DNA of 64,000 nt from an uncultured bacterium (GCA_964584165.1 CAZOYW010000006.1:36022-100021), one strand, 5' to 3'. Positions 13,707 through 63,620 are shown, numbered from the stretch's first letter. The notes: generated by a model from the letters alone, not told the origin. Translations and numbers: made by a program.

Positions 13707-15188
13707 TCATCTTCCTTGCCCCGGTTCCTCCGCCCGAGGAATCCCCTTCTCCCGCCCCGGCGATCCGGAGAGGTAGCGCAGGTAGTTCTTGCGCGCGCGC
13801 CAGAAGACCTTCGCCGCCTCCGCCCAGGAGATCGGCTTCTCGGACTTGTAGCGCCAGAGGGAGGATAGCACATAGATCAGGAAAAAGAGCCTTTTGGATC
13901 GGACCCGGACCAGGCGGCGGAAGAGGGGGAGGAGGGCGGGGAAGCGCATCGCCAGGTGCGAGATCTTCTGCACGCGCTCGATCGTCTCGATCCCCGGAAA
14001 GCGGAAGACGCTGTTCAGGTGGATCCCCCGGTACGCCGGGGAGCGGAGGTAGTCGGGATCGAGGATCCCCGCCTTCCGGGCCGACTCCTCGATCGCGGTC
14101 TTGGGGAAGGGAAGGAGGACGTTGGAGGCGAGGAAGTCCGCGCCCAGGCGGAGGTTGAAGCGGATGTTCTCGAAGGCCTCGTCCACGGTCTCGAAGGGGA
14201 GTCCGAACATCACCGTGGTCTGGAGCTTCATCCCCTGCTCCTTGATCAGGCGGGCGGCGGCGAGCATCTCCTCGTTGGTCACGCGCTTGTTCAGGACCTC
14301 GAACCGCTTTCGCTCGCTCGCCGTCTCGACGCCGAAGTTCACGGTGTGGCATCCGCTCTCCTTGAGGAGGCGGGCGATCTCGGGGGTGAAGTTGGGCGGC
14401 GTGATCGCGCAGAAATAGGGGAGGCCGATCTCGCGGCGGTAGAGATCGGTGAAGCGCTTGAGCCAGCCGACGTCCATGATGAAGACGTCGTCGAGGAAAC
14501 AGAGCGAGGAGAGGCCGTAGCGCTTCTTCACCCCGGCGATCTCGGCGATCACCCGCTCCGGCGACTTCCGCCGGACGTAGCGGCCCTTCCCCCGGTAGAG
14601 GCGGCTGTAGACCTGGTGGCAGCAGAAGGCGCAGTCGAAGGGGCAGCCCCGGGAGGCCATGAAGTGCTTGAGCCGCTCGTCCCGGAGCGAGGGATACTTG
14701 CGGTAATAGAGATCGCGGTCCTCCTCGGGGAGCGAGTCGAGGTCGAGGATCGGCTCCGGTTCCCCCCCCCGGACGATCTCCCCACGCCGTTTTACCCAGA
14801 AACCGGGGAGCGGCTCCGGCTTCCCCCCGGCCCGGAGGGCGGCCAGGAAACGGGGGAAGGAGCGGTCCCCCTCGCCGACGCAGACGGCGTCGATACCCTC
14901 CTCCGCGACCATCTCCGGGCAGGCCGTGGCGTGGATGTAGCCGGCGACCACGGTCACGGAGGGATGGAGGGCCTTGACCCTCCGGGCCTGCTCCAGCATC
15001 CAGGCGTATTCCAGCGACATCACCGGGAGGGCGAGTACGTCCGGGCGGAAGGCCGCGGCGGAAGCCGCCGCGTCCCGCTCGAGGTCGCCGATGAAGACCT
15101 CCCGCTCCACCTCCGGAGGCAGTGAGGCGGAGAGGGCCATCACGCCGAAGTAGGGGAAAGGGTATTTCTGGAGAAAGGCGATCCGCAT
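13707..15188 (-). CDS. B12-binding (class B) radical SAM enzyme (493 aa)
   Basis: N-terminal cobalamin-binding-like domain; SRGCPFDCAFCCH radical SAM cluster. Confidence 0.85.
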   Translation of the reverse strand: MRIAFLQKYPFPYFGVMALSASLPPEVEREVFIGDLERDAAASAAAFRPDVLALPVMSLEYAWMLEQARRVKALHPSVTVVAGYIHATACPEMVAEEGIDAVCVGEGDRSFPRFLAALRAGGKPEPLPGFWVKRRGEIVRGGEPEPILDLDSLPEEDRDLYYRKYPSLRDERLKHFMASRGCPFDCAFCCHQVYSRLYRGKGRYVRRKSPERVIAEIAGVKKRYGLSSLCFLDDVFIMDVGWLKRFTDLYRREIGLPYFCAITPPNFTPEIARLLKESGCHTVNFGVETASERKRFEVLNKRVTNEEMLAAARLIKEQGMKLQTTVMFGLPFETVDEAFENIRFNLRLGADFLASNVLLPFPKTAIEESARKAGILDPDYLRSPAYRGIHLNSVFRFPGIETIERVQKISHLAMRFPALLPLFRRLVRVRSKRLFFLIYVLSSLWRYKSEKPISWAEAAKVFWRARKNYLRYLSGSPGREKGIPRAEEPGQGR

Positions 15189-15224
15189 CGGGGATAGGGG
15201 ATGGGGGCTAGAGGTTAGGTTTTT

Positions 15225-15248
15225 GGGTTCAGGGTTCAGGGTTCAGGG
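15225..15248. repeat. Tandem heptamer (GGGTTCA)x3 spanning the stop codon of the YfhO gene
   Basis: gggttcagggttcagggttcagggg read directly; it encodes the C-terminal ...LNPEP* on the - strand. Confidence 0.5.
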
Positions 15249-17517
15249 GCCGGCGGCGGAGGCCGCCGAGGGCGACGACGGCCAGGAAGAGAGCGACGGC
15301 GGAGGAGAAGACGGCGGGGGCAACGAACGCCCAGTGGCGGCCGTTGAAATAGAACAGCACGCGATGGCGCCCGGCGGGGACGGGCGTCCCCATCAGGACG
15401 TGGTAGACCCGGCGAAGAGGCGCTGGCTCGCCGTCCACCTCCGCCCGCCAGGGGAAGAACCAGAACTCGGAGAAGACGAGCCAGGCCGGGGCGGGAAGAT
15501 CGACCAGGGCTTCGATCCGGTCGCGGCGGCGAGCGCTCACCCGGATCGTCCCCTCCTCCGAGACGGCCGCCGGCCGCAGGGCCAGGGACTCGTCGGCGGC
15601 GTTGACATAGGCGATCCGCGCGATATCGGCTTCCCCCTCCCGCAAGCCGCGGAGAAAGTCCCCGTCTCGGACCACGGGCTCGGCGCGGAAACGGAGGAAG
15701 AGCTCCTCCTCCGCCCCCGGGTTGACCCGGAGATGGGCGTCGACCCGGCTCAGGCTCTCCAGCCCCTTCCGGCTGGTGTCCTCGGGGTCCCAGGAGGCGA
15801 AATAGGCGTCGAGGTCGATGAAGTATTTGACGTTGAGCAGTGACCACATCGGGTTCGACCAGTCGGCGAAGATGATCTCCTGGATCTCGCGAACCCGCCG
15901 CAGCTCCTCGTCGAGGAGGAAGTAGGGGAAGATCGGCCGGATTCCGTCGGAGAGGGCGTTGAGGTAGAAGTTGTGGGAGAAGAGGTCGGGGAGGTCCTTC
16001 ACGCCGAAGAAGGCGCGGTAATCCCGGCGGTCGGGCTGGCTGGCGAGCGCCTCCACCCGGGGCTGGGGACGGTAGATCTCGTCGTAGCGGTAGTAGGCGG
16101 TGGGGTCGCCCCGGTTCGCCTCCCCCAGGGTGGAGAAGAGGGCGGTTTTTTCCAGAAAAAAGAGGGGGAAGATCAGCCAGGCCGCGCGGAGGTCGAGGCG
16201 GGTGAAGGCGAGGGTGGCGAGGATCAACCAGGAGAAGGAGCAGGCGACGACGCCGCGGAGGGGTATCCCGCCCGCCCCGCGGAGGTGGAGGAGAAGCACG
16301 GCGGCGGGGAGCAGGACCGTCCCGCCGGCGATCCAGCGAAGGGAGCGCCGAAAGGAGAGGGAGTCGACGGCCAGGGCGACCAGGAAGGCGTAGAGGAAGT
16401 AGAGGAGCATCGCCATCCGGGCCGGGTGGCGGAGACCGAAGACCTTCATGAACCAGCCCTGCAGGGGAGCCAGGGGGGAGTGCTTCCCCAGGATCCAGAG
16501 GAAGCAGAGAAGGAGGGCGGAGAGCCAGAGGAGGCGGTCGGGGCGCCGGAAAAGGCGGAACAGCCCCACGGCCACCAGGGGGAGGAGGACGAGCGAGAAC
16601 TCCAGTGTGTTCTCCCAGGGATAGTCCGGGCGATCGGTGAAGCCGGTGGAGAGCTGGGTGAGGAAGAAGCGGGGGAGGGAGAGCGAATACTCCAGGATCG
16701 AGTCGAGCGGCTCGGCCCCCCTCCCCTGCTCGGGGAGCGAGTAGAGCGTGGGGATGGCTTGGACGGCGAAGACCATCCCGGCGAGAAGAAAGACCGCCAG
16801 GAGAAGCCGGAGGTTCCGCCACGAGAAGGGGCGCTGGCAGAGGGCCATCAGAGCCAGGAAAAGCCCGAAGAAGAAGGTCGGCTTGACGTCGCCGTTGGAG
16901 ACGAGGCCGATCCCGAGGAGGAGGGCGGAGAGGGCCGCCCAGCGGCGGCGGGCGGCGGAGCCGGGAGCGGCCAGGAGCGCGCGGCCAAAGGCCAGCAGAT
17001 AGAGCGGGGCGAAGAGGACGGCGGAGATCCGGTCGTAGCCGTGGCGGATCCCGAAGACATAGGTCTGATGGTTGTAGGCGTAGGCCAGCCCCCCGAGGAG
17101 GGATCCGGCCGGCCCGAGCCCCCGGGAGCGGAGGAAGAGGAACATGGCGAGGGCGCAGAGGACCTGGAGAACTGCCAGCACGGCGAGGAGGGCGGCCAGA
17201 AGGACGGGGCCGGTCAGGGCCGGGAAGAGGCGGTGGGCGGCGAGGAGCGCGAGGGTCACGGGGGAGAAGATCGGAGCCTGGGGAAAACGGGGAAGGTACT
17301 GGAGGTAGACGGGGTCCCAGAAGAGGGCAGCCCCCTCGTCCGCGGAGCGGAAGAGCGCTTCGACCTGGCAGAGCGTGTCCTTCAGCTCGTACCCCAGCAT
17401 CCCGGAGAAGCCGGGACTGAAGTAGGACTTCCCGTAGAAGGAGAGGAAGGCGAGGGCGGAGATCGCGAGGACGAGGGCGATCTGGCGGCCGGTGATCTTG
17501 GAGAATGCGGCATCCAT
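15229..17517 (-). CDS. YfhO-family GT-C membrane glycosyltransferase (762 aa)
   Basis: Polytopic; C-terminal FSEFWFFPWRAEVDGEPAPLRRVYHVLMGTPVPAGRHRVLFYF YfhO signature. Confidence 0.8.
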   Translation of the reverse strand: MDAAFSKITGRQIALVLAISALAFLSFYGKSYFSPGFSGMLGYELKDTLCQVEALFRSADEGAALFWDPVYLQYLPRFPQAPIFSPVTLALLAAHRLFPALTGPVLLAALLAVLAVLQVLCALAMFLFLRSRGLGPAGSLLGGLAYAYNHQTYVFGIRHGYDRISAVLFAPLYLLAFGRALLAAPGSAARRRWAALSALLLGIGLVSNGDVKPTFFFGLFLALMALCQRPFSWRNLRLLLAVFLLAGMVFAVQAIPTLYSLPEQGRGAEPLDSILEYSLSLPRFFLTQLSTGFTDRPDYPWENTLEFSLVLLPLVAVGLFRLFRRPDRLLWLSALLLCFLWILGKHSPLAPLQGWFMKVFGLRHPARMAMLLYFLYAFLVALAVDSLSFRRSLRWIAGGTVLLPAAVLLLHLRGAGGIPLRGVVACSFSWLILATLAFTRLDLRAAWLIFPLFFLEKTALFSTLGEANRGDPTAYYRYDEIYRPQPRVEALASQPDRRDYRAFFGVKDLPDLFSHNFYLNALSDGIRPIFPYFLLDEELRRVREIQEIIFADWSNPMWSLLNVKYFIDLDAYFASWDPEDTSRKGLESLSRVDAHLRVNPGAEEELFLRFRAEPVVRDGDFLRGLREGEADIARIAYVNAADESLALRPAAVSEEGTIRVSARRRDRIEALVDLPAPAWLVFSEFWFFPWRAEVDGEPAPLRRVYHVLMGTPVPAGRHRVLFYFNGRHWAFVAPAVFSSAVALFLAVVALGGLRRRPLNPEP

Positions 17518-17714: not shown

Positions 17715-18767
17715 CTAGAGTTTCTCCCTTTCCCGGCGCCGCGGCCAGAGGTTTCCCAGGATAGTCTGGTAAGCCTCGCAGGGCGTCCAGCACTGGGGGC
17801 AGCGTCCGGAGTGGATCTCCCCCTGCAGGGCGCCGACCACCGGCGACGACCAGAGGCGGCCCAGGGAAAATCCCTCCCCCCGGAGGTTCCCCAACGGGCG
17901 GTCGTAGCCCGCGCAGGGGTAGACGGTCCCGGCGGGGTCGACGAAGCAGGACGCAGAGAGGGAGAGGCAGGGGAGCGGGCATCTCCCCGTGCGCAGATAA
18001 GCGCGGGCGAGCGAGAGGTAGCGCCGCTCCAAATAACTCTCCGGACGGAGCGCTCCCCCCGTCCGGGGGAGAGAAGAGAGGAGATCCTCCGGCTCCTCCG
18101 GGAGGAGGGAGGCTTCGCCCGGGTTATGGTAGAAGAACGAGCGGTGGACGAGGTTGAAATGAAGATCGGAGGGCTTCACCCAGGGGAGATACCGCCTCAC
18201 CGCCGCCAGCGTATCACCGACCGACCGGAAGTTCTCCGCGTGCAGGGTCATCCCCAGGTAGGCCTCCGCCCCAACCTCCCGCCGGAGGCGACCGAACGTC
18301 TCCAGGGCGCGGGCGAAGGATCCCTCCACCCCGCGCAGGCGGTCGTGGAGGGCGGGGGGGCCGTCGAGGCTGACGCTGACGATGAAGCGGGGCGGGCCGG
18401 AAGCGAGCGCCGCCCGCGCGGCGGCGAGAACGCGCTCGACCAGGTAGCCGTTGGTGGGGAAGTGCAGGAGGAGGAGCCGGCGGGAACGGGACGCGATCGC
18501 CCGGATGATCTCCGGCAGGTCTTCGCGCAGGGCGACCTCGCCCCCCGTCAGATCGACCCAGGAGAAGAAGGGATTGCGCTCGAAAAAAGAGTCGATCTCG
18601 CGGAGCGACAGATCGTCGGCGGACGGATGCGCCCAGGTCCGGCAGGCGAGGCAGCGGAGGTTGCAGCGGTAGGTGAGGGCGAAGGTGAGCTTGTATGGGC
18701 TCTGGAGGCGCCGGAAGTTGGAGAGGAGCGCCCGGGCGCCGAGTCGGAGATAGGAAAGGAGAGGCAT
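17715..18767 (-). CDS. Radical SAM/SPASM-domain enzyme, anSME-like paralog (350 aa)
   Basis: CNLRCLAC cluster; SLDGPPALHDRLRGVEGSF shared with the other three SPASM paralogs; C-terminal CPLPC...CPQCWTPCEAY. Confidence 0.85.
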   Translation of the reverse strand: MPLLSYLRLGARALLSNFRRLQSPYKLTFALTYRCNLRCLACRTWAHPSADDLSLREIDSFFERNPFFSWVDLTGGEVALREDLPEIIRAIASRSRRLLLLHFPTNGYLVERVLAAARAALASGPPRFIVSVSLDGPPALHDRLRGVEGSFARALETFGRLRREVGAEAYLGMTLHAENFRSVGDTLAAVRRYLPWVKPSDLHFNLVHRSFFYHNPGEASLLPEEPEDLLSSLPRTGGALRPESYLERRYLSLARAYLRTGRCPLPCLSLSASCFVDPAGTVYPCAGYDRPLGNLRGEGFSLGRLWSSPVVGALQGEIHSGRCPQCWTPCEAYQTILGNLWPRRREREKL

Positions 18768-18777
18768 CGGGGATTAA

Positions 18778-18890: not shown

Positions 18891-19652
18891 TCATCCGAGA
18901 AGAAGATATTTCAGCCAGCTATACACGTATCGGCAAGACACCCGGCGGAGGCGGATCTTCGACTCCCCGAAGCGGCGGCTGAATTCGTGGGAGGGGATCT
19001 CGGCGATCCGGAAGCCCTTCCGCAGGGTCTTGATCGTCATCTCCTGCTCGATGGTGGTGATGTTCTCCTTGAGATCGAGGGCGCGAGCGCACTCCGCTGA
19101 GAGCGCCCGGAAGCCGTTCTGCGACTCGCTCAAGCGCACGCCGAAGCGGTAGTTGATCCCGAGCGTGATGATGTCGCTCCCGATCATCCGGAGAAACTTG
19201 TTCAAGTCGCCGTGAAGCTCGTCGGAGCCTCCCCGGGGGCGGGAGCCGACGACGTGGTCGGCCTCTCCCCGGAGGATGGGGAGGACCAGGCGGGGGATGT
19301 CGGCGGGACGGTGGGAGTAGTCGGCGTCGATAAAGACGATGACCTCGCCCGCGGCCTCCCGGATCGCGGTCCGCACGCCATCCCCCTTCCCCTTCCCCCC
19401 GTCCAGGACCACCCGGCAGCCCAAGCCGGAAGCGATCTCGCGGGTCCGGTCGGAGGAATGGCCGTCCACCACCAGGAGCTCGTCGGCGTAGGGGCGGGAG
19501 AAGCGGACGATCTCGCCGATCGACTTCTCCTCGTTCCGGGTCGGGATGACCACCGTGACCTTCTTCGTCCGGCGGCCGTACTCGGCGAGGATCTCCTCGT
19601 CGGAGCCGGCGGGGGCCCAGGGGTCGGCCGAATCGATCGGCGGGCGGTTCAT
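18891..19652 (-). CDS. GT2 polyprenyl-phosphate sugar synthase, DPM1/GtrB-like, soluble (253 aa)
   Basis: VTVVIPTRNEEKSIGEIV...VVDGHSSDRT...FIDADYSH; DPM1-type GT-A catalytic core. Confidence 0.85.
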   Translation of the reverse strand: MNRPPIDSADPWAPAGSDEEILAEYGRRTKKVTVVIPTRNEEKSIGEIVRFSRPYADELLVVDGHSSDRTREIASGLGCRVVLDGGKGKGDGVRTAIREAAGEVIVFIDADYSHRPADIPRLVLPILRGEADHVVGSRPRGGSDELHGDLNKFLRMIGSDIITLGINYRFGVRLSESQNGFRALSAECARALDLKENITTIEQEMTIKTLRKGFRIAEIPSHEFSRRFGESKIRLRRVSCRYVYSWLKYLLLG

Positions 19653-19886: not shown

Positions 19887-22373
19887 TTACTGAGGCCCTA
19901 CTCCCCGATCAAGCCGATTTCGTCGGCCAGGCAGGGAGAGGACCATGATTACGCCGATCAACCCCGCGGCGGTCCAGGCCAGGCCGGGGCCGAGGGAGGG
20001 GGGGAGGAATTCCATCACGATCTCGCGGCTGCCGGGGCGGCACCAGACCCCCCTCTGGAGGTAATTGACCCGGTGGACGTCCTTGGCGCGTTCGTCCACC
20101 CGGACCTTCCAGCCGGGGTGATGGAGATCGGTGACCACCAGCATCGAGAGCTTTTTCACCTCCATCCGGAAGACCAGCCGGTGGGGGTCCGTCTCGTCGA
20201 CGGAGAGGATGCGGTTGGATTCCTGGAGATCGTCGAAATGGGCCTTCCATTCGGCGTCGGAGAGTGGCGGGGGATGTGGGTAGAGGTGGGCGAAGGGGCG
20301 AACGTGCCAGACCTCCCGCGGGCAGTATCCGGCGGCGCGGAGGTCGAAGTTGAGGAGGGCAAACCTCTCCCGCTCCTCGTCCGCCACCACCCAGCGGTCC
20401 TGGAAATACCAACGCGGGAGGGGTTCCGGGAGAAGGCCGGCGTAGCAGCGCCCCGGCCCGGCGGGGATGGGCTGGGCCGGCGGGGCGAGGGGCGCTGCGG
20501 AAAGGAGGTAGCGGACGGACAGGTTCCGCCAGAAGTTCGACGCCCAGTCCCGGGGGACGAGCTCGCCCCCCGATCGGTCGGCGGCGCCGGAGAAGGCGGT
20601 GGCGGCGCGGCGGCCGACCGGGCCGAGCTCGAAACCAAGCGGGGACGCCGAGCCGAAGGCCCAGGCGAGGTTGTCGAAGGCGGAGCGGAAATATCCCCGG
20701 CGATAACGGTTCTCCAGGTCGGGGAAGGCGGCGGCGAAGGAAGCGGCCGCGCGATAAGCCGGATGGTCGGAAGGGCCTCGGTAGCGCGCGCCGAAGAGGT
20801 CGCCGGGGGGAAAGGCGGGAGCGGCGGAGCGGTAGAACCCACGGTAGGCTCCGAGCGCTATTTCCAGCAGGGCGAGAAGGAGGACGGCGGACGGGCGGAA
20901 ACGAAGGGGGAGGAAGCGGACGGCGGCGAAGAAAGCGCCGGCCGCGGCCAACCCCGCGAAGAGGGCGAGAAGGAGACCGGAAACGGCGACGGCGGCGAGG
21001 CCGCGGAGGCCGGGGAAAACGAGGCCAAGGGCGGACCGGTAGGGCCAGAACAGGGCGAAAAGGACGATCCCGGCGAAGACGGCCAGGATCTTCCCGATCC
21101 GGGAGGGAGACACGGCTTCCGGATGGCCGCGGAGGGACTGAAAAGAGAGGCCAAGGAGGAGCGACCAGGAGAAGGCGAGGAGAACGGGCGGCGAGGAGCC
21201 GAGGATGCGGTCGGGAGCGAGGAAGGCGAGTAAGGCGCCGGCGAGGAAGCAGAATATGGCGACGCCGGCCGCCGCCCCCGGTAGGCCCGCTCCCCCGACT
21301 CTGCTGTTGGATTGTAATATTGGAATGTCGGGGCAAGTGCGAGCGGGCGCGACGGCTCCCCTCCTCCGCCGGATAGAGATGAGCCCGCTAGCGACGAGAA
21401 GGGCGGAGGCGATCCCGCCGGGGAGAGCGACCGACGGCCAGCGGCGGCCCAGGGCGAGGGCCGGCCCCCAGAGGCCATGACCCGTATCGGCCCCAAAGAT
21501 GCCGGGGACGAGGAAACCGGCGAGCGCGGCCGGGGAGAGGGGGAAGACGGGCGGGGGAGGCGCGGCGAGCTCGGCTTCCCGGACGAGGCGCAGCGACTCG
21601 GGGAGGCCGGCCCAGCGGATGCCGGAGAGGCACCCCCCAAGGACGAGCGCGGCGAAGGCGCCCCCGAGAGCGCGCCGGGCGGCGAGGCGGTCGGCGCGCC
21701 GGAGAAAGGCGAGAACGAGCGCCAGGCCGAAAACGGCGATCGAGAGGAAGACGCCGGCGGCCGCGGCGAGGTCGCCCCCCAGGCTGGAAAGGGCGGCGGC
21801 ACCCGCAGCGGCGAGGAGGCGCCCGCGGCCGCCTTCCCGGGAGAAGAGGAGGAGGAAGAGGGCGGCGGCGGGGAGCCAGGCTAGGGAGAAGATCGCCGGC
21901 AACCGCCCGGTCTGGAGGGCGAAGACCGGCGAGAGCGACCAGGAAAGGGAGAGGAGGAGCGCGGGGGCGGGATCGAGGCGGAGCCCCCGGCGGGCGAGGG
22001 CGAAAGCGAAGAGGCAGGAGAGGAGGAGATGGGCGGCGAGCGGGAAGAGGTAGAGGGCCGGATAATCGGCGAAGGCCGATCCGCTCCCCAGGAGGAGAAA
22101 CGGCCAGTTCGGAGGATAGAGGGCGGCATGGGAAAGGCGCACGGACCAATCGACCGCCCCCGCCCCGACCGCCGGGTCAAACCAGGGATAGTGCCCCGCG
22201 CGGAGAAGGCGGGAGAGGAACAACTGCTGCGGATAGGAGAGGAGGGCGGCCTCGCCGGAGAAAGCGCCGGAAACGCCGCAGAGATAAGGGAGGAGAAAGA
22301 TCAGAAGAAGGAGAGGGCCGATGAAGGTCCCGATCCAGCGGAGAGAAGAAGCCGTCGGGGCGCGAGGGGTCAT
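19887..22373 (-). CDS. YfhO-family GT-C membrane glycosyltransferase (828 aa)
   Basis: Polytopic; C-terminal VVTDLHHPGWKVRVDERAKDVHRVNYLQRGVWCRPGSREIVMEF. Confidence 0.8.
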   Translation of the reverse strand: MTPRAPTASSLRWIGTFIGPLLLLIFLLPYLCGVSGAFSGEAALLSYPQQLFLSRLLRAGHYPWFDPAVGAGAVDWSVRLSHAALYPPNWPFLLLGSGSAFADYPALYLFPLAAHLLLSCLFAFALARRGLRLDPAPALLLSLSWSLSPVFALQTGRLPAIFSLAWLPAAALFLLLFSREGGRGRLLAAAGAAALSSLGGDLAAAAGVFLSIAVFGLALVLAFLRRADRLAARRALGGAFAALVLGGCLSGIRWAGLPESLRLVREAELAAPPPPVFPLSPAALAGFLVPGIFGADTGHGLWGPALALGRRWPSVALPGGIASALLVASGLISIRRRRGAVAPARTCPDIPILQSNSRVGGAGLPGAAAGVAIFCFLAGALLAFLAPDRILGSSPPVLLAFSWSLLLGLSFQSLRGHPEAVSPSRIGKILAVFAGIVLFALFWPYRSALGLVFPGLRGLAAVAVSGLLLALFAGLAAAGAFFAAVRFLPLRFRPSAVLLLALLEIALGAYRGFYRSAAPAFPPGDLFGARYRGPSDHPAYRAAASFAAAFPDLENRYRRGYFRSAFDNLAWAFGSASPLGFELGPVGRRAATAFSGAADRSGGELVPRDWASNFWRNLSVRYLLSAAPLAPPAQPIPAGPGRCYAGLLPEPLPRWYFQDRWVVADEERERFALLNFDLRAAGYCPREVWHVRPFAHLYPHPPPLSDAEWKAHFDDLQESNRILSVDETDPHRLVFRMEVKKLSMLVVTDLHHPGWKVRVDERAKDVHRVNYLQRGVWCRPGSREIVMEFLPPSLGPGLAWTAAGLIGVIMVLSLPGRRNRLDRGVGPQ

Positions 22374-25388: not shown

Positions 25389-25910
25389 TCACTCCCCCGC
25401 CGTACGGTCCCGCTCCGAGAGGATGGGACGCCGCACAGGCCAGTGGATCCCGAAGGCCGGGTCGTCCCAGCGGAAGGTCGCCTGGGCGGCGCGGTCGTAG
25501 TAGCCGGACTGCTTGTAGTGGAAGATGGCCTTGTCGCTCAGGACAAGATGGGCCACGCCGTGGCCGGGCGGGACGAGGACCTGGAGGTGGTTGGCGTCGG
25601 AGAGGGTGAAGGCCTCCCAGAGGCCGAAGTCCGAGCGGGACCGGTCGCAGACGGCCACCACCAGGTAGAACTTCCCGTAGAGGCAGTCGACCAGCTTCCA
25701 GATCCGGGGGTCGGCGTGGATCCCGCGGAGCACGCGGCGGGAGGAGACGGAGATGTCGTCCTGGACGAAACGCGCCGCGACGCCGGCCCGGCGGTAGAGC
25801 TCTTCGTTGTAGGTCTCGACGTAGACCCCCCGGTGGTCCCGGAAGACCGTCGGGGGAACGATCACCTTCACCCCCGGCAGCTCCGTCGGCTTCACGAGTA
25901 GCTCCGCCAT
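25389..25910 (-). CDS. rmlC: dTDP-4-dehydrorhamnose 3,5-epimerase-like cupin (RmlC family)
   Basis: FVQDDISVS, LRGIHAD, KLVDCLYGKFYLVVAV, VPPGHGVAHLVLSDKAIFHYKQSGYY match RmlC motifs. Start at the internal ATG, which has an AGGAGGA RBS; the ORF's first Met (25967) adds 19 aa. Confidence 0.75.
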   Translation of the reverse strand: MAELLVKPTELPGVKVIVPPTVFRDHRGVYVETYNEELYRRAGVAARFVQDDISVSSRRVLRGIHADPRIWKLVDCLYGKFYLVVAVCDRSRSDFGLWEAFTLSDANHLQVLVPPGHGVAHLVLSDKAIFHYKQSGYYDRAAQATFRWDDPAFGIHWPVRRPILSERDRTAGE

Positions 25911-26128
25911 GTCATCCTCCTGCCCGCCCCGGTCCGGGCGGAGCTCGGTTAAGGGCCGCTCAGCCACGGGTCAGCCGCTGGAAAGCCCGAACGGACGGGT
26001 TGGGGCGGACGGGGCAATAGATCGCCACCAGGATGCGCCGGCGGAGGGCAACGAATACCCGCCGGCATTCGGAGTCGATCATGCTTGAGGCTTCTTCCGC
26101 CCCCCCGCGCTCCCGCGCCGCCCGACGA

Positions 26129-32951: not shown

Positions 32952-33001
32952 ATCGTTGACCGGCGCCCTCCTTGGGGGGGAGAGCGCGCGGACGGCGAAG
33001 A

Positions 33002-43504: not shown

Positions 43505-43547
43505 CGCGGGGTTCGTCTAGTGGAAGCGGCCGGGAAGATCCGCGGCT

Positions 43548-57128: not shown

Positions 57129-58517
57129 TTAGGTCCGGGGGGAGAAGAGGGAGCGGACCAGGTCCGGCCGGCGCAGGAGCGCCCGCCAGGCCATCGGGTC
57201 CTTGAGCTTCCTCGCCCAGTAGGACGGGCGGCGGTAGAAGGCGGCGAAGGCGCGGCGGAGCCAGGATTCCAGGTCGGGGACGAGGTAGGGGAGGCGGTCG
57301 GAACGGAGGCCCAGCGTGTATTGGCGCCAGTAGTCCGGGTCGATCAGCCCCTCCCGGACCGCGTCCTCGTGGAGGAGGGTGCCGGGGAGCGGGACCGCGG
57401 GGTAGAACATCACGTAGTCGGGTGCGAGCGAGCGGGCGAGGCGGATCGTCGCCGCCATCGTCTCGGGCGTCTCCCCGGCGTAGCCCAGGATGAAGTAGGC
57501 GCCGGTCTTCAGGCCGGCCGCCCGGGCCCCGGCGAAGGCGGCCTTTGCCTGGGCGATTGTGATCCCCTTCTCCATCCGGTCGAGGATCGCCTGGGAGCCC
57601 GACTCCACTCCGAACTTGAGCTGCCGGCAGCCCGACTCCCTCATCAGCTTCATCAAGTCGGCCGAAACGATGTCCACGCGGGTCGCGCCCTGCCAGCGGA
57701 GGCGCAGCCCCCGGCGCCGGATCGAGCGGCAGAGGGACTCGATCTGGGCGGCGTTGACGGTGAGCATGTCGTTGCAGAAGATGATCTCCCTCACCCCCTC
57801 GTCGACGGCGAGGCGCTCCATCTCCTCCGCGACCAGCTCGGGCGAGCGGTGCCTCACCCGCCGCTGCTCCGGCGGGCGGTGGCAGAAGCCGCAGCGGAAA
57901 GGGCAGCCCCGGGTGGAGATCATCGTCGCCATCGGGGAACGGGCGTCGGCCCGGCCGTACCGGCGGGGGGGGATGAGGTCGCGGGCGGGGAGCGGGATCC
58001 CGTCCAGGTCCTCGACCACGGCGGAGGGGTTGCAGACCGTCTCCCCCCCCCTCCTCCAGACCAGTCCGGGGACCCCGGCTAAGTCGCCCCCTCCCCGCAG
58101 GGCGTCGAGGAGGACGAGCAGCGCCTCCTCGCCCTCCCCGGCGACGGCGAAGTCGAAACAGCGGTGGGAGAGGGTCTCGCGGGGGAGGAGCGAGACGTGG
58201 GGGCCGCCAACCACCACCCGGGGGGCGCATTCCCGCGCCTGCGAAGCGGCCTCCACCGCCCCCTGGATCTCCGGCGTGGTGGCGGTGATCCCCACGAGGT
58301 CGGGGCGCCAGCGCTCGAGGGCGCGCCGGAGGTCGTCCGCCCCCCACCCTTCCCGGACGCAGTCGAAGAGGGCGGCCTCGTGGCCGGTGGCCCGCAGCGC
58401 CCCTCCCAGGTAGGCGAGACCGAGCGGCGGCCAGACGCCCATCCGGTCGACCACCGAGGGGAGCTCCCGGGTGTTGACCATCGCCCGGTCGTGATAGCGG
58501 ACGAGCGCCACCCTCAT
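57129..58517 (-). CDS. B12-binding (class B) radical SAM enzyme (463 aa)
   Basis: MRVALVRYHDRAMVN...; TRGCPFRCGFCH. ATG 58517 forms an ATGA overlap with the upstream stop; the 851-aa ORF extension is junk. Confidence 0.85.
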   Translation of the reverse strand: MRVALVRYHDRAMVNTRELPSVVDRMGVWPPLGLAYLGGALRATGHEAALFDCVREGWGADDLRRALERWRPDLVGITATTPEIQGAVEAASQARECAPRVVVGGPHVSLLPRETLSHRCFDFAVAGEGEEALLVLLDALRGGGDLAGVPGLVWRRGGETVCNPSAVVEDLDGIPLPARDLIPPRRYGRADARSPMATMISTRGCPFRCGFCHRPPEQRRVRHRSPELVAEEMERLAVDEGVREIIFCNDMLTVNAAQIESLCRSIRRRGLRLRWQGATRVDIVSADLMKLMRESGCRQLKFGVESGSQAILDRMEKGITIAQAKAAFAGARAAGLKTGAYFILGYAGETPETMAATIRLARSLAPDYVMFYPAVPLPGTLLHEDAVREGLIDPDYWRQYTLGLRSDRLPYLVPDLESWLRRAFAAFYRRPSYWARKLKDPMAWRALLRRPDLVRSLFSPRT

Positions 58518-59944
58518 CGCGTCCCCTCCCCCGTCTCGAAGATCTCCCGGAGCACCCGCCCGGCCGAGCGGGCGGGCGGGCGGAGGCCGAGGATGGCCGC
58601 CGCCGTCGCCCCGATGTCCATGATCGTCCCGGAGGCTTCGACCCGGGCGCCCCGCCGGATCATCGGCCCGCGGGCGATGAAGGGGACGATCCGCTCGGAG
58701 GGGGCGAGGAGGTAGGAGTGGTCGATCCCGGCGATCCCGTGGTCGGAGCAGACGATCACCGCCGTCTCCGCCTCCAGCCCCTCTCGGCGGAGCCAGCCGA
58801 AGAAGCGGCCGAGGCGCTCGTCGGTCCGCTCCAGCGACTCCCGGTAGAGCGCGGAAGCGGAGCCATAGGCGTGGCCGACGAAATCCGCCTCGCTGATGTC
58901 GAAGACGAAGAGCCGGACCTCGGGGCGGCCGAGCAGGTCGCGCTGGAGCTCCGCCAGCGCGAGCTCGTCGATCCGCCAGCAGGAGACGGCGGCGATCGGG
59001 ACGACCTTCACCTCCCACTCCGGCTTGGAGAAGTGGCGCACGTGCATCGATCCGTAGAGGACCGTCGGCGTGAGGTCGGGCAGCCCCTCGACCCGGATCC
59101 GCTGGCCGAGGTTGTTGTTGAGGACGCCGTGGACCCGGGGCGGCGCGCCGGTGAGGATGCTGGCGAAGGCCGGGTTGGTCAGGGCCCGGTAGACCGTCCG
59201 GAGCCCCGGGAGGATCTCCGTCCCCTCCCCCGCGAAGGACCGGAGCGACGGTCGGGCGATCCGGTCGAAGACGTCCCGCCGAACGCCGTCGATGTTGAGG
59301 ATGATCAGGCGGCGGGCGGGGGCGAGAGCGGGGAGGGCGGGGCCGGACGCCGGGTCCGAGAGGATGCGGGGGAGGAGCTTGCGCACCGCCGCCGCCCAGA
59401 GAAGGAGGAGAGGGAAGGGAGCGGCGGCCGTTAAACTCCCCCGGGCGGCGGCGAGAAGAGAGAGCGTCAGGAAGCCGGAAAAGGCGACCGACATCGAGAG
59501 GCTGACCGTGGTCGGGGCGACCGTCCAGCAGGAGTTCCAGAGCATCCGGAAGGGGACCGAGCCGTCGCGGCTGACCAGGCCGTTGGGGATGCCCATGAAG
59601 AGGAGCTGGACCGCGGCGAAGACCGCGATCTGGAGGAGGAGCGCGGCGGCGAGCGTCCCCGGCGCCAGGACGCCCATGAGCCACCAGTAAGCGGCCGCCG
59701 CCGGGACGGCCAGGGAGAGCCAGGGGTGAAAGTCGCCGATCCGGCAGATCGCGTAGACCGCCCCCGCCGCCGGGAGGGCCCAGAGGGTCGCGGCCGACCA
59801 GGGAGGGGAGAGGAGGAGGAAGACCCCGATCCCGGCGATCGCGTAGTAGGTGTCGATGCTGTTGAAGAAGTAGAGGACGCGGACCGCGACGTCCTCCACC
59901 CCGGCGAGGAGGTCGGAGAGGGCCGAGCGCAGGGAGCGGTTCAT
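58514..59944 (-). CDS. Membrane-anchored alkaline-phosphatase-superfamily enzyme, NPP/type I phosphodiesterase-like (476 aa)
   Basis: Six N-terminal TM helices; ILNIDGVRRDVF, LTGAPPRVHGV, VCSDHGI. ATG 59944 forms an ATGA overlap with the upstream stop. Confidence 0.75.
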   Translation of the reverse strand: MNRSLRSALSDLLAGVEDVAVRVLYFFNSIDTYYAIAGIGVFLLLSPPWSAATLWALPAAGAVYAICRIGDFHPWLSLAVPAAAAYWWLMGVLAPGTLAAALLLQIAVFAAVQLLFMGIPNGLVSRDGSVPFRMLWNSCWTVAPTTVSLSMSVAFSGFLTLSLLAAARGSLTAAAPFPLLLLWAAAVRKLLPRILSDPASGPALPALAPARRLIILNIDGVRRDVFDRIARPSLRSFAGEGTEILPGLRTVYRALTNPAFASILTGAPPRVHGVLNNNLGQRIRVEGLPDLTPTVLYGSMHVRHFSKPEWEVKVVPIAAVSCWRIDELALAELQRDLLGRPEVRLFVFDISEADFVGHAYGSASALYRESLERTDERLGRFFGWLRREGLEAETAVIVCSDHGIAGIDHSYLLAPSERIVPFIARGPMIRRGARVEASGTIMDIGATAAAILGLRPPARSAGRVLREIFETGEGTR

Positions 59945-60996
59945 CTTCGGTGGCGGAGGAGGTTGCCCGGCGGAAAACTCAAGCGGGTCTCGAGGTAGCA
60001 GACGTAGCAGGTGGTCCGGCAGCGGGCGCAACCGGCCAGGGAAGCGAGCGTCCGCCGGTATTCCGGAGTCGCCATGACTCCGGGCCAGTCCCGGAGCCGG
60101 AAGGGGGACCGCCAGCCCATCCCCTCGAGGCAGGGGAAGACCGTCCCGTCCGGCCAGACCTCCAGGTGATGATAGCCGAAAAGGCAGGGCCGGGAAGCGA
60201 AAACGTCCGTCCGGCCCCGGACGAGGAACTCGGCGGCGGCCCGGAGGAAACGGTCGGAGTTGATCACCCGCCGCGAGCGGGCGAGCTCCCGGAAGACCGC
60301 CTCGATCCGCGCCGGGTCCGGCGGGGGGGCGGACCGCTCCCCGGCGGCGCCGTCGAAGGCCGGGTGGGAGTTGCGCGGCTGGATCTTCATCTTCACCCCC
60401 GCCTCCCCGGCCAGGCGGAGGACGCTTAAGGCCTCCTCCGGCCGGTCGGGCATGACCACGGCGTTCAGGACCACCGCCGTCGCCGGGGCGGCGGCGCGGA
60501 GCGCCTCCACCGCCTGGAGCGCCCCGACGTGCGCGCCCGGCTTTCCCCGGATGGCGTCGTGGAACGCGGGCGAGCCGTCGATGCTGATCGAGACCTCGTC
60601 CACGCCGGCGGCCCGGAGGGAGGCCGCCCGCGAACGGTCGAGAAGGGAGCCGTTGGTCACCAGGTGCGTGTAGAGGACGCCCCCGGCGCGCGCCGCCGCG
60701 AGCGCCTCCTCGGCGTAGGGGAGGAGGAGCGGCTCGCCGCCGCTGATGCTGAAGTAGGCGCAGGAGAGGTTCCCCAGCTCCCGGGCCAACCTCAGGATCT
60801 CCTCGCGCCCGAGGGTCGGGGACCCCGGGTGCTTCCTGATCTCGCAGAAGGAGCAGGCAAAATTGCAGCGGGTGGTGATGTAGCAGCCGCAGGCCATCGG
60901 ACGGGGGCGGGAGCGCAGGTAGGACGCGTACCAGCGGGCGGTCCGAAAGAGGAGCGGAAGGGCCCGGCGGGGCTTGAGGAGGAGGGGATGCCTCAC
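59941..60996 (-). CDS. Radical SAM/SPASM-domain enzyme, anSME-like paralog (351 aa)
   Basis: CNFACSFCEIRK; SIDGSPAFHDAIRGKPGAH; C-terminal CLFGYHHLEVWPDGTVFPC...CARCRTTCYVCY. Confidence 0.85.
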   Translation of the reverse strand: MRHPLLLKPRRALPLLFRTARWYASYLRSRPRPMACGCYITTRCNFACSFCEIRKHPGSPTLGREEILRLARELGNLSCAYFSISGGEPLLLPYAEEALAAARAGGVLYTHLVTNGSLLDRSRAASLRAAGVDEVSISIDGSPAFHDAIRGKPGAHVGALQAVEALRAAAPATAVVLNAVVMPDRPEEALSVLRLAGEAGVKMKIQPRNSHPAFDGAAGERSAPPPDPARIEAVFRELARSRRVINSDRFLRAAAEFLVRGRTDVFASRPCLFGYHHLEVWPDGTVFPCLEGMGWRSPFRLRDWPGVMATPEYRRTLASLAGCARCRTTCYVCYLETRLSFPPGNLLRHRR

Positions 60997-62147
60997 CGCT
61001 TCACCTCCGGGCGGGCGGCAAGGAGGCGGAGGGCGGCCGCGACCACCTCCTCGGTCCCGATCGCCTGGAGGCAGCGGTTGTCCCGGCAGTTGGCCATCTT
61101 GTAGCGGTAGACGTTGAGGCAGGGGCTGCAGTGGCGGCGGGAGTAGAGGACCTCGTGGCGCTCGGGCGGGAGCGGGCCGTAGAGGCGGGGGGTTTCCGGC
61201 CCGAAAAGGGCGACGCAGGGCGTCCCCAGCGTGGCGGCGAGATGCATCGGGCCGCTGTCGTTCCCGATGTAGAGGGCGGCCCGGCGGAGAAGTCCGGCGA
61301 GCTCGGCGAGGGTGAGCGTCCCGACCAGGGGGATCAGGCGCTCCTCCTTCCGGAAGGCCTCGACCAGGGGAGCCATGTACTCGCGGTCGGCGGGGCCGCC
61401 GATGGCGGCGACGGCGAGGTCGGTCCGGTCCAGGAGCCCCCGGATCGCGGCGATGTACCGGTCCCGGGGCCAGCGGCGCTGGAGGGAGAGGTCGCCCGCG
61501 TTGGGGTTGACCACGGCGAAGGGGCGGGAGAGGAAGGGGAAGCGGGCCGCGTCCAGGGCCGCGGGGCCGGTGGCCACCCGGGGCTCGCTCGCCTCCGCGC
61601 AGCCCAGGAAGGCGGCGATCCGGCCAAAGCAGTCCCGAGCATGGAGGGAGTGGTCGAAGACGACCCCGACGTCGTAGAGGGCGTCCCGCTCCGGCTTCAG
61701 GGAGGTGAAGCCGATCGAGGGTGAGCCGGACGAGAAGGCGACCAGGGCGGTAAAGTTGGAGGAGAACTCGAAGTCGATCACCAGGTCATAGCGCGCGGCG
61801 CGGACCGCGGCGAAGAGCTTGAGGACGGCGAGGGGGAAGGACGGCCGGCGGAGATCGACCGTGACCACCCGGTCGATCTCCGGGATCAGGCGGCAGGCCT
61901 CCGCCGTCTCCGGAAGGGTGAGGAAATCGATCCAGGCCCGGGGCCAGCGCCCCTTGATGGCCCGGAGGGTGGGCGAGATCAGAAGGATCGATCCGATCCC
62001 CCAGCATTTGACGCAGAGGATGCGGGGCGACGAACCCGGGGCCGGGGCCACGTTTCCCCTCCGCCGGCGACGAAAAAGGCCGGCCAGGCGGCCCAGGAAG
62101 AAGCCGGCCGAGGCGTCAACGCGGCGGAGGAAATTGATCGAGTACAT
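60993..62147 (-). CDS. GT9-family glycosyltransferase (ADP-heptose:LPS heptosyltransferase-like)
   Basis: ILCVKCWGIGSILLISPTLRAIKGRWP...; GNDSGPMHLAATLGTPCVALFGP; ATGA overlap with the upstream start. Confidence 0.8.
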   Translation of the reverse strand: MYSINFLRRVDASAGFFLGRLAGLFRRRRRGNVAPAPGSSPRILCVKCWGIGSILLISPTLRAIKGRWPRAWIDFLTLPETAEACRLIPEIDRVVTVDLRRPSFPLAVLKLFAAVRAARYDLVIDFEFSSNFTALVAFSSGSPSIGFTSLKPERDALYDVGVVFDHSLHARDCFGRIAAFLGCAEASEPRVATGPAALDAARFPFLSRPFAVVNPNAGDLSLQRRWPRDRYIAAIRGLLDRTDLAVAAIGGPADREYMAPLVEAFRKEERLIPLVGTLTLAELAGLLRRAALYIGNDSGPMHLAATLGTPCVALFGPETPRLYGPLPPERHEVLYSRRHCSPCLNVYRYKMANCRDNRCLQAIGTEEVVAAALRLLAARPEVKR

Positions 62148-62201
62148 TTTATTCCATTATACCCCATCCGCGGCCGTCCCCAGCCAGGGGGGCCGCCGAC
62201 C

Positions 62202-63620
62202 TCAGCGGGACCGCCGGAAGCGCCAGAAGTAGCGGATCGCCTCGCCATAGCCCATCCGTTTCCAGTTCTTGAACCAGAAAAACAATCCCGCGTAGCGGAC
62301 CCCCCGCAAAGGGAAAGGCAGGCGAGCGAGCCAGCGGAAGCGGCGGTAAAAACCCGGAAAGCGGACGAAGAAGTAGAAGAGGTATTGGACGTTCTCGATC
62401 GTCCGGCGGTCGGGAATGGCGCAGACCGAGCGGGTGAAGTAGTTCCCCGGGAGGTCCTCGGCTTTGAAATCGGGGGGGATGCACCCCGCCCGGACCGCCG
62501 CGTCGAAGATCCGGGTGTCGGGGTAGGGGAAGAGGAAGCTGGAGAAGGGGTGGTCCACCTTGAGCTCGTGGTAGAGCTCGACCGTGCGGAAGGCGTCGGC
62601 GACGGTCTCGCCGGGGAAGACGAACATGGAGGGGGCGTAGACCTCGATCCCCCGCTCCTTGACCAGGCCGATCTGGCGGCGGAACTCGGCGTCGGTGAAG
62701 GCCTTCTTGTTGAAGACTCCCCGGCGCTTTTCCTCGCTCCCGGTCTCGATCCCGAACTCGACGCTGGCGCAGCCGGTATCCCGGAGGAGGTCGGCGACCT
62801 CGGCGTCGATCGTCCCCGGCCCGGCCGAGCAGATGTAGGGGAGGCCGATCTCCTTCCGATAGCGGGGGAGGAAGCTTTTGAGCCAGTCCCGGTCGAGGAG
62901 GAAGAGGTCGTCGATGAAGAAAACCGTCTCCGCTTTCCGATAGCGGTCCCGGAGCCGGATGAGCTCCCCGAGTGCGAACTCGGGCGACTGGCGGCGCTGC
63001 ACCGGCCCCAGCCCCTTGAAAAGCCGGTTGAGCGTCTCGTTGACGCAGAAGGAGCAGGGGAAGGGGCAGCCCCGGGAGGAGAGGTACTGGAGGAGGGTGT
63101 CGTCGGCGAGCCGCGGGTAGCGGCGGAAGTAGACCTCGCGGTCCTCCGGGTAGGCGTCGAGGTCGGCGATGAGCGGGCGCAAGGGGTTCCGGTAGATCTT
63201 CCCCTGGCGGCGGACATGGAGGTTCCGGATACCAGTGATCACTGCTTTGTTCGCCTTCCCCAGCGCCGCCAGGAGTTCGACCACCGCCTCCTCCCCCTCC
63301 CCCACGCAGATCGCGTCGAGCTCCTTCGTCTCCTCGAGGAGCGCGGGGTGGATGGTGGGGTGGATGCCCCCGGCGAGGAGGAAGGCCGCCGGCGCCGCCC
63401 GCCGGATCGCGGGGACGACCGCCCGGAACCAGTTGAGGTCGCTGGAGCAGAGCGTGATCCCGACCGCGTCGGGTCCGAAGGCGGCGATCTCCCGCGGGAG
63501 GTCCTTCTCGGCGTTCTCCATCAGGACCAGGCACGTGTGACCGGCCCGGGCGGAGGCGGCGGCGAGGGAGGCGATCCCGGGGAGGGCGAAGACCTGGCGC
63601 TGGACGAAGAGGATCTTCAT
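62202..63620 (-). CDS. B12-binding (class B) radical SAM enzyme
   Basis: MKILFVQRQVFALPGIAS...; SRGCPFPCSFCVNE. An alternative TTG start at 63641 is possible. Confidence 0.85.
   Translation of the reverse strand: MKILFVQRQVFALPGIASLAAASARAGHTCLVLMENAEKDLPREIAAFGPDAVGITLCSSDLNWFRAVVPAIRRAAPAAFLLAGGIHPTIHPALLEETKELDAICVGEGEEAVVELLAALGKANKAVITGIRNLHVRRQGKIYRNPLRPLIADLDAYPEDREVYFRRYPRLADDTLLQYLSSRGCPFPCSFCVNETLNRLFKGLGPVQRRQSPEFALGELIRLRDRYRKAETVFFIDDLFLLDRDWLKSFLPRYRKEIGLPYICSAGPGTIDAEVADLLRDTGCASVEFGIETGSEEKRRGVFNKKAFTDAEFRRQIGLVKERGIEVYAPSMFVFPGETVADAFRTVELYHELKVDHPFSSFLFPYPDTRIFDAAVRAGCIPPDFKAEDLPGNYFTRSVCAIPDRRTIENVQYLFYFFVRFPGFYRRFRWLARLPFPLRGVRYAGLFFWFKNWKRMGYGEAIRYFWRFRRSR

Follow-up and report, generated by a model that had tools for sequence, protein, structure and literature searches.

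Five B12-binding-type radical SAM proteins in a surface-glycan island of an uncultured bacterium and their possible role in sugar modification

The stretch analysed here, 64,000 nucleotides (nt) of a contig from an uncultured bacterium (GCA_964584165.1, CAZOYW010000006.1:36022-100021) and referred to below as the window, is one continuous surface-glycan assembly island, and it carries five genes for radical S-adenosylmethionine (SAM) proteins with a B12-binding domain (rSAM1 to rSAM5; Table 1). On balance, we favour the view that they are soluble cytoplasmic enzymes of class B architecture, with an N-terminal Rossmann-type B12-binding domain and a [4Fe-4S]/SAM TIM-barrel core, which belong to five different uncharacterised subfamilies and serve this single island. 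Their most plausible activity is a radical tailoring, most likely a C-methylation, of activated sugars destined for surface glycans, a rather probable interpretation in which we infer the substrate, the methylation, the use of cobalamin and the acceptor. The source bacterium is probably anaerobic. A scan of GTDB gave no match over 40% identity, and homologues with a taxonomic name hint loosely at Planctomycetota, Omnitrophota and Nitrospirota.

Identity and relatedness of the five proteins

An earlier note on this DNA had reported five genes that combine a B12-binding-like domain with the cluster motif [ST][RL]GCP[FY]xCx[FY]C, and this was confirmed in 5/5 proteins, both by Pfam thresholds and by the exact motif. 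PF02310 (B12-binding) was matched with 45-80 bits against a gathering threshold (GA) of 32.1, and PF04055 (Radical_SAM) with 51-88 bits against 29.5. Each protein contains a single CxxxCxxC motif (SRGCPFDCAFC, SLGCPFACDYC, SRGCPYDCAFC, TRGCPFRCGFC and SRGCPFPCSFC). The reading frames are supported by the periodicity of G+C at third codon positions (GC3), which was 0.89-0.92 for the five open reading frames (ORFs), and gene calls of identical length exist for this contig in public assemblies. No transmembrane (TM) helix was predicted in any of the five.

All five proteins are mutually homologous (BLASTP E values of 1e-14 to 7e-88), yet they share only 24-36% identity, the closest pair being rSAM1 and rSAM5 (36%). 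Each has a separate orthologue group in other metagenomes, at 62-88% identity for rSAM1, 55-64% for rSAM2, 59-74% for rSAM3, 47-73% for rSAM4 and 59-72% for rSAM5. The rSAM1 group is a small family with 55 matches; that of rSAM2 comprises more than 120 clusters, from anammox Brocadiaceae, Nitrospirae, Omnitrophica, Deltaproteobacteria, Planctomycetota and others. The low mutual identity and the possession of an own orthologue group by each protein therefore indicate five old subfamilies in one island, and not recent duplicates. The term paralogous, as used in the earlier note, is right only in this deep sense and does not extend to recent copies.

Gene context and proposed sugar chemistry

Several of the genes are physically tied to glycan genes. 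GT2_b is a glycosyltransferase of family 2 (GT2) that matches Synechocystis GtrB (5ekp) over its full length (residues 8-319, E 1e-51; ArnC, 1e-33), and its stop lies 4 nt ahead of the rSAM2 start. The rSAM4 start overlaps by 4 nt the stop of a gene for an enzyme of the alkaline-phosphatase superfamily similar to nucleotide pyrophosphatases/phosphodiesterases (AlkP/NPP-like), which is also translationally coupled to rSAM_y, a radical SAM gene without B12 domain; rSAM3 is coupled to mem715, which encodes a putative divergent PMT_2-type GT-C glycosyltransferase. This operon coupling, together with the conserved synteny described below, therefore places rSAM1-5 in the cytoplasmic phase of surface-glycan biosynthesis. 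The interleaving of the five genes with GtrB-like and GT-C genes, pointed out in the earlier note, is borne out by the full-length GtrB match and by PMT_2 and YfhO Pfam scores above or near gathering.

Related loci from other genomes, denoted here by L numbers, showed that rSAM2 belongs to a recurrent set of genes. A two-subunit thiamine pyrophosphate (TPP) enzyme was found within 3 kb of the rSAM2 orthologue in 11/11 loci with usable flanks. The orthologue is followed by two transketolase subunits in Brocadiaceae (L092), Nitrospirae (L093, which adjoins fliD/fliS), L094 (JGI metagenome), Deltaproteobacteria (L035/L037) and L106 (Logan), and in Planctomycetota (L055) and Omnitrophica (L062) a pair similar to the alpha and beta subunits of pyruvate dehydrogenase E1 (PDH-E1) replaces the transketolase. 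The N-terminal transketolase subunit of the window shares 58-70% identity with neighbours of rSAM2 orthologues, and the C-terminal subunit 50-65% with those of L092-L094 and L097. In addition, seven of these loci (L035, L055, L062, L092, L093, L094 and L106) carry genes for an NAD epimerase/dehydratase, for a GHMP kinase and for an NTP transferase and, in most cases, one for a DegT aminotransferase, and rSAM2 orthologues at 43-64% identity lie within such a nucleotide-sugar cassette in at least six lineages. The best models for the partners were HddA for the kinase, ManC/HddC for the transferase and RfbH/PseC for the aminotransferase, all of them under the equivalog cut-offs. The window holds a short form, in the order GT2_b, rSAM2, transketolase N, transketolase C, RmlC-like epimerase and sulfatase-fold protein, which is repeated exactly in L097 and L105; just past the window end, the same contig encodes two DegT aminotransferases and an epimerase/dehydratase.

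The other genes are also found in conserved modules. The order GT9, rSAM_y, 5-TM AlkP/NPP-like enzyme, rSAM4, rSAM3 and GT-C is kept in L087 and L089 at 36-74% identity. There the rSAM3 orthologues (74% in L087 and 59% in L089) always follow the rSAM4 orthologue, either immediately or with one gene in between, and the AlkP/NPP-like and rSAM_y orthologues share 43-63% and 48-60% identity, respectively. GT9 recurs in L087, L089, L093, L094, L107 and L108, and the pairing of the RGP-like gene with an adjacent GT2 is kept in L087 (58-60% identity). A YfhO-like GT-C gene followed directly by an rSAM1-type gene is present in the window, in L107 (67% identity) and in L108 of Omnitrophica (38%); both loci again have GT9, SPASM radical SAM and GT2 genes nearby, together with E1-like TPP enzymes in L108 and further B12-type radical SAM genes in L107. 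The rSAM5 orthologues at 59-72% identity adjoin genes similar to MT_b, mem712, mem613, unk504 and the FAD oxidoreductase. Furthermore, rSAM4 homologues occur fused to an Alg14-like domain (P0045, 641 aa) and to a class I SAM methyltransferase (P0060, 721 aa); Alg14 is a glycosyltransferase subunit of lipid-linked oligosaccharide synthesis. The earlier note had proposed C-methylated or otherwise radical-modified sugars or lipid carriers. The synteny of the modules across lineages supports the direction of this proposal for sugars or lipid-linked sugars of the envelope, and the HpnP/GrsA-like lipid options found no support in the neighbourhood.

The mechanism that we propose follows the chemistry established for class B enzymes (PMC12931638), for example GenK, Fom3, TokK and Mmp10. 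Cleavage of SAM by the reduced [4Fe-4S] cluster would give a 5'-deoxyadenosyl radical, and this radical would abstract hydrogen from the activated sugar at an sp3 carbon that is itself unactivated. Methylcobalamin would then donate a methyl group to the substrate radical and be regenerated by a second SAM. The substrates would be nucleoside diphosphate (NDP) sugars or polyprenyl-phosphate-linked sugars. In the case of rSAM2, the enzyme would act with the split transketolase and the RmlC-like epimerase (elsewhere also with an HddA-like kinase, an HddC-like nucleotidyltransferase, a dehydratase/epimerase and DegT) to give a modified higher-carbon (heptose-like) or branched amino sugar nucleotide. 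The GtrB/ArnC/AglJ-like GT2 enzymes would load the sugars onto polyprenyl phosphate, and the YfhO-like and PMT_2-like GT-Cs, together with GT9, would pass them to the final acceptor.

Among characterised proteins, GenK and GenD1 (gentamicin), Fom3 (fosfomycin; CMP-activated substrate) and MoeK5 are sugar-modifying class B radical SAM methylases. By their described features, they have the two-domain architecture and the cluster motif in common with rSAM1-5. The substrates of these methylases are small, sugar-like molecules in activated form, and the methylase genes lie among sugar-nucleotide and glycosyltransferase genes, as here; however, they belong to actinomycete antibiotic pathways, whereas the present genes are found in a primary envelope or surface-glycan island of uncultured anaerobes with GT-C, GtrB-like, GT9 and transketolase genes. 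The island also resembles three-component glycosylation systems (a GT2 of the GtrB/CsbB/PgfS type, a flippase and a GT-C such as GtrV, YfhO or ArnT) in its GT2_b and the YfhO-like and PMT_2 neighbours. Those systems are not known to include a radical SAM enzyme and usually have a single GT-C, while here radical SAM genes stand between those for GT2 and GT-C, and the polytopic membrane proteins number at least 13. No GtrA-like flippase was seen in the window.

A third comparison concerns the GDP-heptose pathway, with its HddA, HddC and the cupin C3/C5 epimerases of Campylobacter capsules, since HddA and HddC/ManC are the best matches of the rSAM2 cassette partners. RmlC-like epimerase and GT9 genes co-occur, and a transketolase could supply sedoheptulose-7-phosphate. 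The cassette scores, however, are 146 against 600 and 128 against 300 bits, and neither GmhA nor GmhB is found in the cassette; moreover, we know of no heptose pathway with a radical SAM enzyme or a dedicated transketolase. For rSAM2, the data point specifically to a nucleotide-sugar pathway that is similar to the GDP-heptose route without being identical to it. We tentatively propose, as a possibility short of probable, that the rSAM2 family, its split transketolase or E1-like TPP enzyme and the cassette constitute an as yet undescribed pathway by which anaerobes make a C-methylated or branched higher-carbon amino sugar nucleotide, and that class B enzymes are an integral and recurrent part of three-component GtrB/GT-C surface glycosylation in anaerobes. 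S-layer heptosylation has been described in Aneurinibacillus and Ca. Kuenenia, and in the latter the S-layer O-glycans include oligo-heptose chains and the cell has GDP- and ADP-heptose pools (bioRxiv 10.1101/2020.12.03.409086). The same O-glycans contain a methylated N-acetylhexosamine and an unidentified 174-Da "dimethyl-deoxyhexose", and mass spectrometry could not place the methyl groups (PMC5088730). Brocadiaceae have their rSAM2 orthologues in an HddA/HddC-like cassette, which is compatible with the proposed sugar tailoring.

Several points weigh against a cobalamin-dependent sugar methylation. The two class I methyltransferases of the island could account for any glycan methylation, and the class B architecture is no proof of cobalamin use, given that the cobalamin-free AprD4 is as close as the true methylases by sequence and by model. 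The scans with Pfam and NCBIfam found no cobalamin transport or synthesis genes in the window, and neither a cobalamin riboswitch nor any other RNA was detected in it. The GHMP kinase and the nucleotidyltransferase of the rSAM2 cassette are missing from the window itself, and for several of the large membrane proteins no family was detected. Finally, the literature searched has neither a characterised member of any of the five subfamilies nor an article on these modules, be it on cassettes of radical SAM, transketolase and GHMP kinase or on B12-type radical SAM enzymes in polysaccharide clusters.

It is mainly through antibiotic, cofactor and lipid pathways that class B radical SAM enzymes are known, and the literature searched does not describe them as regular components of glycan assembly at the cell surface. 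The superfamily itself is known, and with tens of thousands of class B enzymes still uncharacterised the finding is no categorical surprise. For the subfamilies, the partnership with a dedicated transketolase and the integration with GtrB, GT-C and GT9, however, no characterised precedent was found. The window and the modules in several anaerobic phyla offer concrete candidates, open to testing, for a new chemistry of sugars such as C-methyl, deoxy or branched heptose-like ones. Among the lineages concerned are anammox bacteria, Nitrospirae and Omnitrophica, in whose S-layer and flagellar glycans methylated and unidentified sugars are known to occur. If the proposal is true, it would represent a new layer of envelope chemistry in anaerobes, for which there is no characterised example.

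Family placement and alternative functions

None of rSAM1-5 reached the curated cut-off of any NCBIfam model tested (BchE, HpnJ, HpnR, ladderane-associated, PhpK, BzaD, AprD4, MgmA, ApyD, RiPP C-methylase, TsrM-like and HemW/HemN-related). The nearest solved structures by sequence, all of them weak matches, were MgmA (9ccb), AprD4, TsrM, TokK and CysS, and AprD4 (PDB 6fd2) was the best or second-best solved relative in 3/3 enzymes tested (E 6e-15 to 6e-21, approximately 19-20% identity). The fold comparison was limited to rSAM2. Its AlphaFold2 (AF2) model, with a pLDDT of 94.2, had TsrM (2e-24), AprD4, MgmA, CysS, OxsB and TokK as Foldseek neighbours (TMq 0.59-0.68), with AprD4 in second place (TMq 0.67). 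AprD4 is the radical SAM 1,2-diol dehydratase of apramycin, which acts on a sugar and is cobalamin-free, and to our knowledge there is no universal sequence motif for cobalamin binding. Because AprD4 is as close as TsrM and the true methylases, the class B architecture cannot separate cobalamin users from cobalamin-free enzymes.

As a separate observation, a family-specific insertion separates the B12 domain of rSAM2 from its radical SAM core (residues ~195-225, window ~28770-28865). This insertion, which has the strongly conserved consensus YRAHNMHCFQDF..S...DFSDVR, is lacking from the other four paralogues, and AF2 models it as helical. It may serve as a lid over the substrate or as an additional metal site.

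A serious rival, which we nevertheless consider unlikely, is a sugar chemistry without methylation and possibly independent of cobalamin: an AprD4-like 1,2-diol dehydration (deoxygenation), a ring contraction or rearrangement as in HpnJ or OxsB, an epimerisation, or the formation of C-C bonds to higher-carbon sugars. The position of AprD4 in both comparisons speaks for it, as do the five different subfamilies in one island, which suggest several reactions, and the class I methyltransferases already present there. HpnJ, a class B envelope enzyme that acts on a lipid-bound amino sugar, is moreover among the top NCBIfam partial matches. On the other hand, most characterised class B enzymes are methylases (PMC12931638), and the AprD4, HpnJ and OxsB-like models scored far under their cut-offs. 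Although AprD4 is like the present proteins in sequence and fold and acts on a sugar, its family model NF033070 gave 42-98 bits against 500, and no AprD3-like partner reductase was found adjoining the genes. HpnJ reached 78-155 bits against 578, and hopanoid genes (hpnH, shc and others) were absent near the radical SAM genes.

Partial matches of the same kind lead to a modification of membrane lipids or of the polyprenyl carrier, that is, methylation, cyclisation or coupling of the hopanoid, ladderane or membrane-spanning-lipid type. Besides HpnJ, they involve HpnR (at most 126 bits against 650) and the ladderane-associated B12-type family TIGR04072 (71-159 against 360); rSAM_x, one of the radical SAM proteins without B12 domain, partially matches the tetraether synthase Tes, and a CrtI/HpnE-like FAD oxidoreductase occurs in the window and beside rSAM5 orthologues. 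We consider this reading improbable: the scores remain well under the cut-offs, the conserved partners are sugar-nucleotide and glycosyltransferase genes, and no squalene/hopene cyclase, polyprenyl synthase, fatty-acid or ether-lipid gene was found in the window or in related loci. As for methylation of phosphorus, the PhpK-type P-methyltransferase model TIGR04479 gave at most 139 bits against 600, and no phosphoenolpyruvate (PEP) mutase was found in the window.

Quite improbable, too, is that the five proteins are C-methyltransferases acting on a surface protein or a ribosomal peptide, in the manner of MgmA or of the enzymes of ribosomally synthesised and post-translationally modified peptides (RiPPs), with the SPASM enzymes as peptide maturases. 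The corresponding models were among the partial matches (TIGR03975 at most 84 bits against 282, ApyD NF050148 at most 173 against 750, MgmA TIGR04014 at most 128 against 360), and the four SPASM or plain radical SAM paralogues resemble peptide maturases at a low level. All these scores are under the cut-offs, however, and the window and related loci yielded no precursor peptide, protease, cyclodehydratase or export ABC transporter; what was observed instead is translational coupling to glycosyltransferases and the inclusion of rSAM2 in a nucleotide-sugar cassette.

The last alternative, tetrapyrrole enzymes such as the anaerobic cyclase BchE or a HemN-type coproporphyrinogen dehydrogenase, is effectively refuted by the NCBIfam scores and the fold comparison. 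Many homologues carry the JGI label "anaerobic Mg-protoporphyrin IX monomethyl ester cyclase", and BchE is the top NCBIfam partial match for rSAM2 and rSAM4; nevertheless, TIGR02026 (BchE) gave 69, 139, 108, 198 and 88 bits for the five proteins against a cut-off of 481, and hemN_rel at most 29 against 205. HemN aligned with the rSAM2 model in the core domain only (TMq 0.32, rank 31) and, unlike the present proteins, its type has no B12 domain, while no photosynthesis or haem genes lie nearby. A placement of all five proteins in the BchE or coproporphyrinogen oxidase clades, which the earlier note had raised as contrary to glycan chemistry, was therefore not found. The pipeline labels "BchE-like anaerobic cyclase" or "YgiQ" attached to thousands of such proteins are wrong. 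As a whole, the lipid, peptide and tetrapyrrole readings have little or no support in the neighbourhood and fail the model cut-offs, and sugar tailoring remains our preferred reading.

Other genes of the island

All large ORFs of the window were scanned against Pfam and NCBIfam (Table 1). Its G+C content is 65-71%, and from ~10 kb to 64 kb nearly all genes are on the minus strand, with a persistently positive GC skew and many pairs overlapping by at least 4 nt. The strand uniformity and these overlaps suggest a few very long operons. The approximately 38 genes include nine for radical SAM proteins, five of them of the B12 type, a density that would be far above any genomic background.

Table 1. 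Features of the window (positions counted from its first nucleotide)
Feature	Position	Strand	Description
YfhO-like_A	179..2734	-	island left arm (179..10144)
FAD oxidoreductase	3031..4461	+	PRK07208 family; left arm
8-TM protein	4464..5978	+	follows FAD oxidoreductase; left arm
SPASM radical SAM	7029..8165	+	left arm
Sulfatase-fold protein	7988..10144	+	left arm
Sulfatase-fold protein	10188..13643	-	4 TM + TPR + sulfatase fold; downstream of rSAM1; no C/SxPxR formylglycine motif
rSAM1	13707..15188	-	493 aa; class B architecture; Pfam B12-binding + Radical_SAM; CPFDCAFC at residue 182
YfhO-like GT-C	15229..17517	-	directly upstream of rSAM1; PF09586 29.7 bits (GA 28.5); 11 TM helices
SPASM_1	17715..18767	-	radical SAM without B12 domain; Pfam Radical_SAM + SPASM; no NCBIfam equivalog
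GT2_a	18891..19652	-	AglJ/dolichyl-P-hexose-synthase-like
mem828	19887..22373	-	YfhO-family paralogue; 43% identity to mem819, 32% to YfhO-like_A; sub-threshold YfhO match
Sulfatase-fold protein	23963..25381	-	no C/SxPxR motif
RmlC-like cupin sugar 3,5-epimerase	25389..25967	-	PF00908 E 9e-43; rmlC model 134.6 bits (cut-off 155.75)
Transketolase C-terminal subunit	26129..27067	-	Pfam Transket_pyr + Transketolase_C
Transketolase N-terminal subunit	27068..27898	-	TPP-binding; Pfam Transketolase_N; NCBIfam transketolase 245 bits; start probably GTG 27898
rSAM2	27948..29447	-	499 aa; large conserved family partnered by split transketolase
GT2_b	29452..30438	-	GtrB/ArnC/PgfS-like polyprenyl-phosphate glycosyltransferase; 3 predicted C-terminal TM helices
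GT-C PMT_2/PMT	30468..33215	-	C-terminal ankyrin repeats; PMT_2 36.7 bits (GA 26.1), PMT 28 (GA 22.7); 12 TM
Membrane-protein run	33002..47620	-	mem760, mem819 (YfhO-like), mem850, mem712, mem613, mem1002, MT_a, MT_b
MT_a	35327..36034	-	class I SAM methyltransferase
MT_b	40590..~41380	-	class I SAM methyltransferase
GT2_c	47620..48480	-	dolichyl-P-hexose-transferase-like; extent trimmed by GC3
RGP-like protein	48757..49920	-	PF03214
rSAM_x	50110..51153	-	radical SAM without B12 domain; paralogue of SPASM_1
Polytopic membrane protein	51211..53442	-	743 aa call; weak C-terminal F5/8 type C match
mem715	53439..55586	-	putative divergent PMT_2-type GT-C; 11 TM helices; start overlaps rSAM3 stop
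rSAM3	55538..57052	-	504 aa; Pfam B12-binding + Radical_SAM
rSAM4	57129..58517	-	462 aa; Pfam B12-binding + Radical_SAM
AlkP/NPP-like enzyme	58514..59944	-	5 TM, membrane-anchored; PF01663 92 bits; 476-aa gene call
rSAM_y	59941..60996	-	radical SAM without B12 domain; PF04055 90 bits; no equivalog
GT9	60993..62147	-	heptosyltransferase family; PF01075 97 bits; heptosyltransferase III model 107 (cut-off 170)
rSAM5	62202..63620	-	472 aa; Pfam B12-binding + Radical_SAM; nearest paralogue rSAM1 (36% identity)

The three GT2 enzymes comprise one full-length GtrB/ArnC/PgfS homologue and two similar to AglJ/dolichyl-P-hexose synthases, and the GT-C genes of the window include four YfhO-family paralogues and one PMT_2/PMT protein. 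The polytopic membrane proteins are 500-850 aa long. Among them, mem715, mem1002 (45386-47620) and mem760 (33002-35284) form a group without any direct Pfam match. When 1.84 billion clustered proteins were searched exhaustively, the mem715 family had only 21 representatives (E at most 1e-3), always downstream of an rSAM3 orthologue. Since 10/19 family members match PMT_2 in a Pfam scan of the search matches (best E 2.8e-13), the group can be regarded as a divergent GT-C of the PMT_2-like kind with a lineage-restricted distribution; for mem715, AF2 with a 3-sequence alignment gave a pLDDT of 43.6. For mem850/mem712, mem613 and mem776, no GT-C family match was obtained by Pfam, by PDB profile search or by hhalign between shallow paralogue profiles.

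The four radical SAM proteins without B12 domain (7029-8165, SPASM_1, rSAM_x and rSAM_y) share 26-34% mutual identity, two of them have a SPASM domain, and none has an NCBIfam equivalog. Homologous SPASM genes recur beside B12-type genes in L024, L093, L094, L105, L107 and L108. The three sulfatase-fold proteins match Pfam Sulfatase, 3/3 are devoid of the C/S-x-P-x-R motif and two are membrane-anchored; on their sequences, they are probably other transferases or hydrolases of the AlkP superfamily and not true sulfatases. As these proteins have no formylglycine motif, the adjacent SPASM genes are not anaerobic sulfatase-maturating enzymes (anSMEs), a candidate function that was rejected also because no anSME model matches. 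With respect to the AlkP/NPP-like enzyme, the nearest PDB entry is the Xanthomonas NPP 2gsn (E 3.5e-15), and the N-terminal 5-TM anchor together with an NPP/alkaline-phosphatase-like domain is an LtaS/EptA-like architecture.

The FAD oxidoreductase belongs to the uncharacterised NCBIfam family PRK07208.1-4 (496 bits, over the cut-off) and its N-terminus is similar to UDP-Galp mutase and CrtI. Homologues adjoin rSAM5-type genes in L095, L097, L103 and L105, and are found near B12-type genes in Caldilineales loci (L054, L056, L065 and L068). PF03214, matched by the RGP-like protein, is the family of plant UDP-arabinopyranose mutases/reversibly glycosylated polypeptides (RGPs) and is unusual in bacteria. 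A tRNA-Ser(CGA) called by ARAGORN at 39217-39303 (+) was rejected as a probable false positive, as it has no Rfam tRNA match and lies inside a strongly coding minus-strand ORF.

Besides the ankyrin fusion of the PMT_2/PMT protein, a free-standing ankyrin protein is encoded between two B12-type radical SAM genes in L105. Finally, a Desulfovibrionaceae locus (L086), archaeal loci (L007 and L011, including Helarchaeota) and L008 contain 3-5 B12-type genes per 20 kb together with GT2 genes similar to AglJ and dolichyl-phosphate mannose (DPM) synthase, and for this reason multi-copy clusters of this kind seem to be widespread in anaerobic bacteria and archaea.

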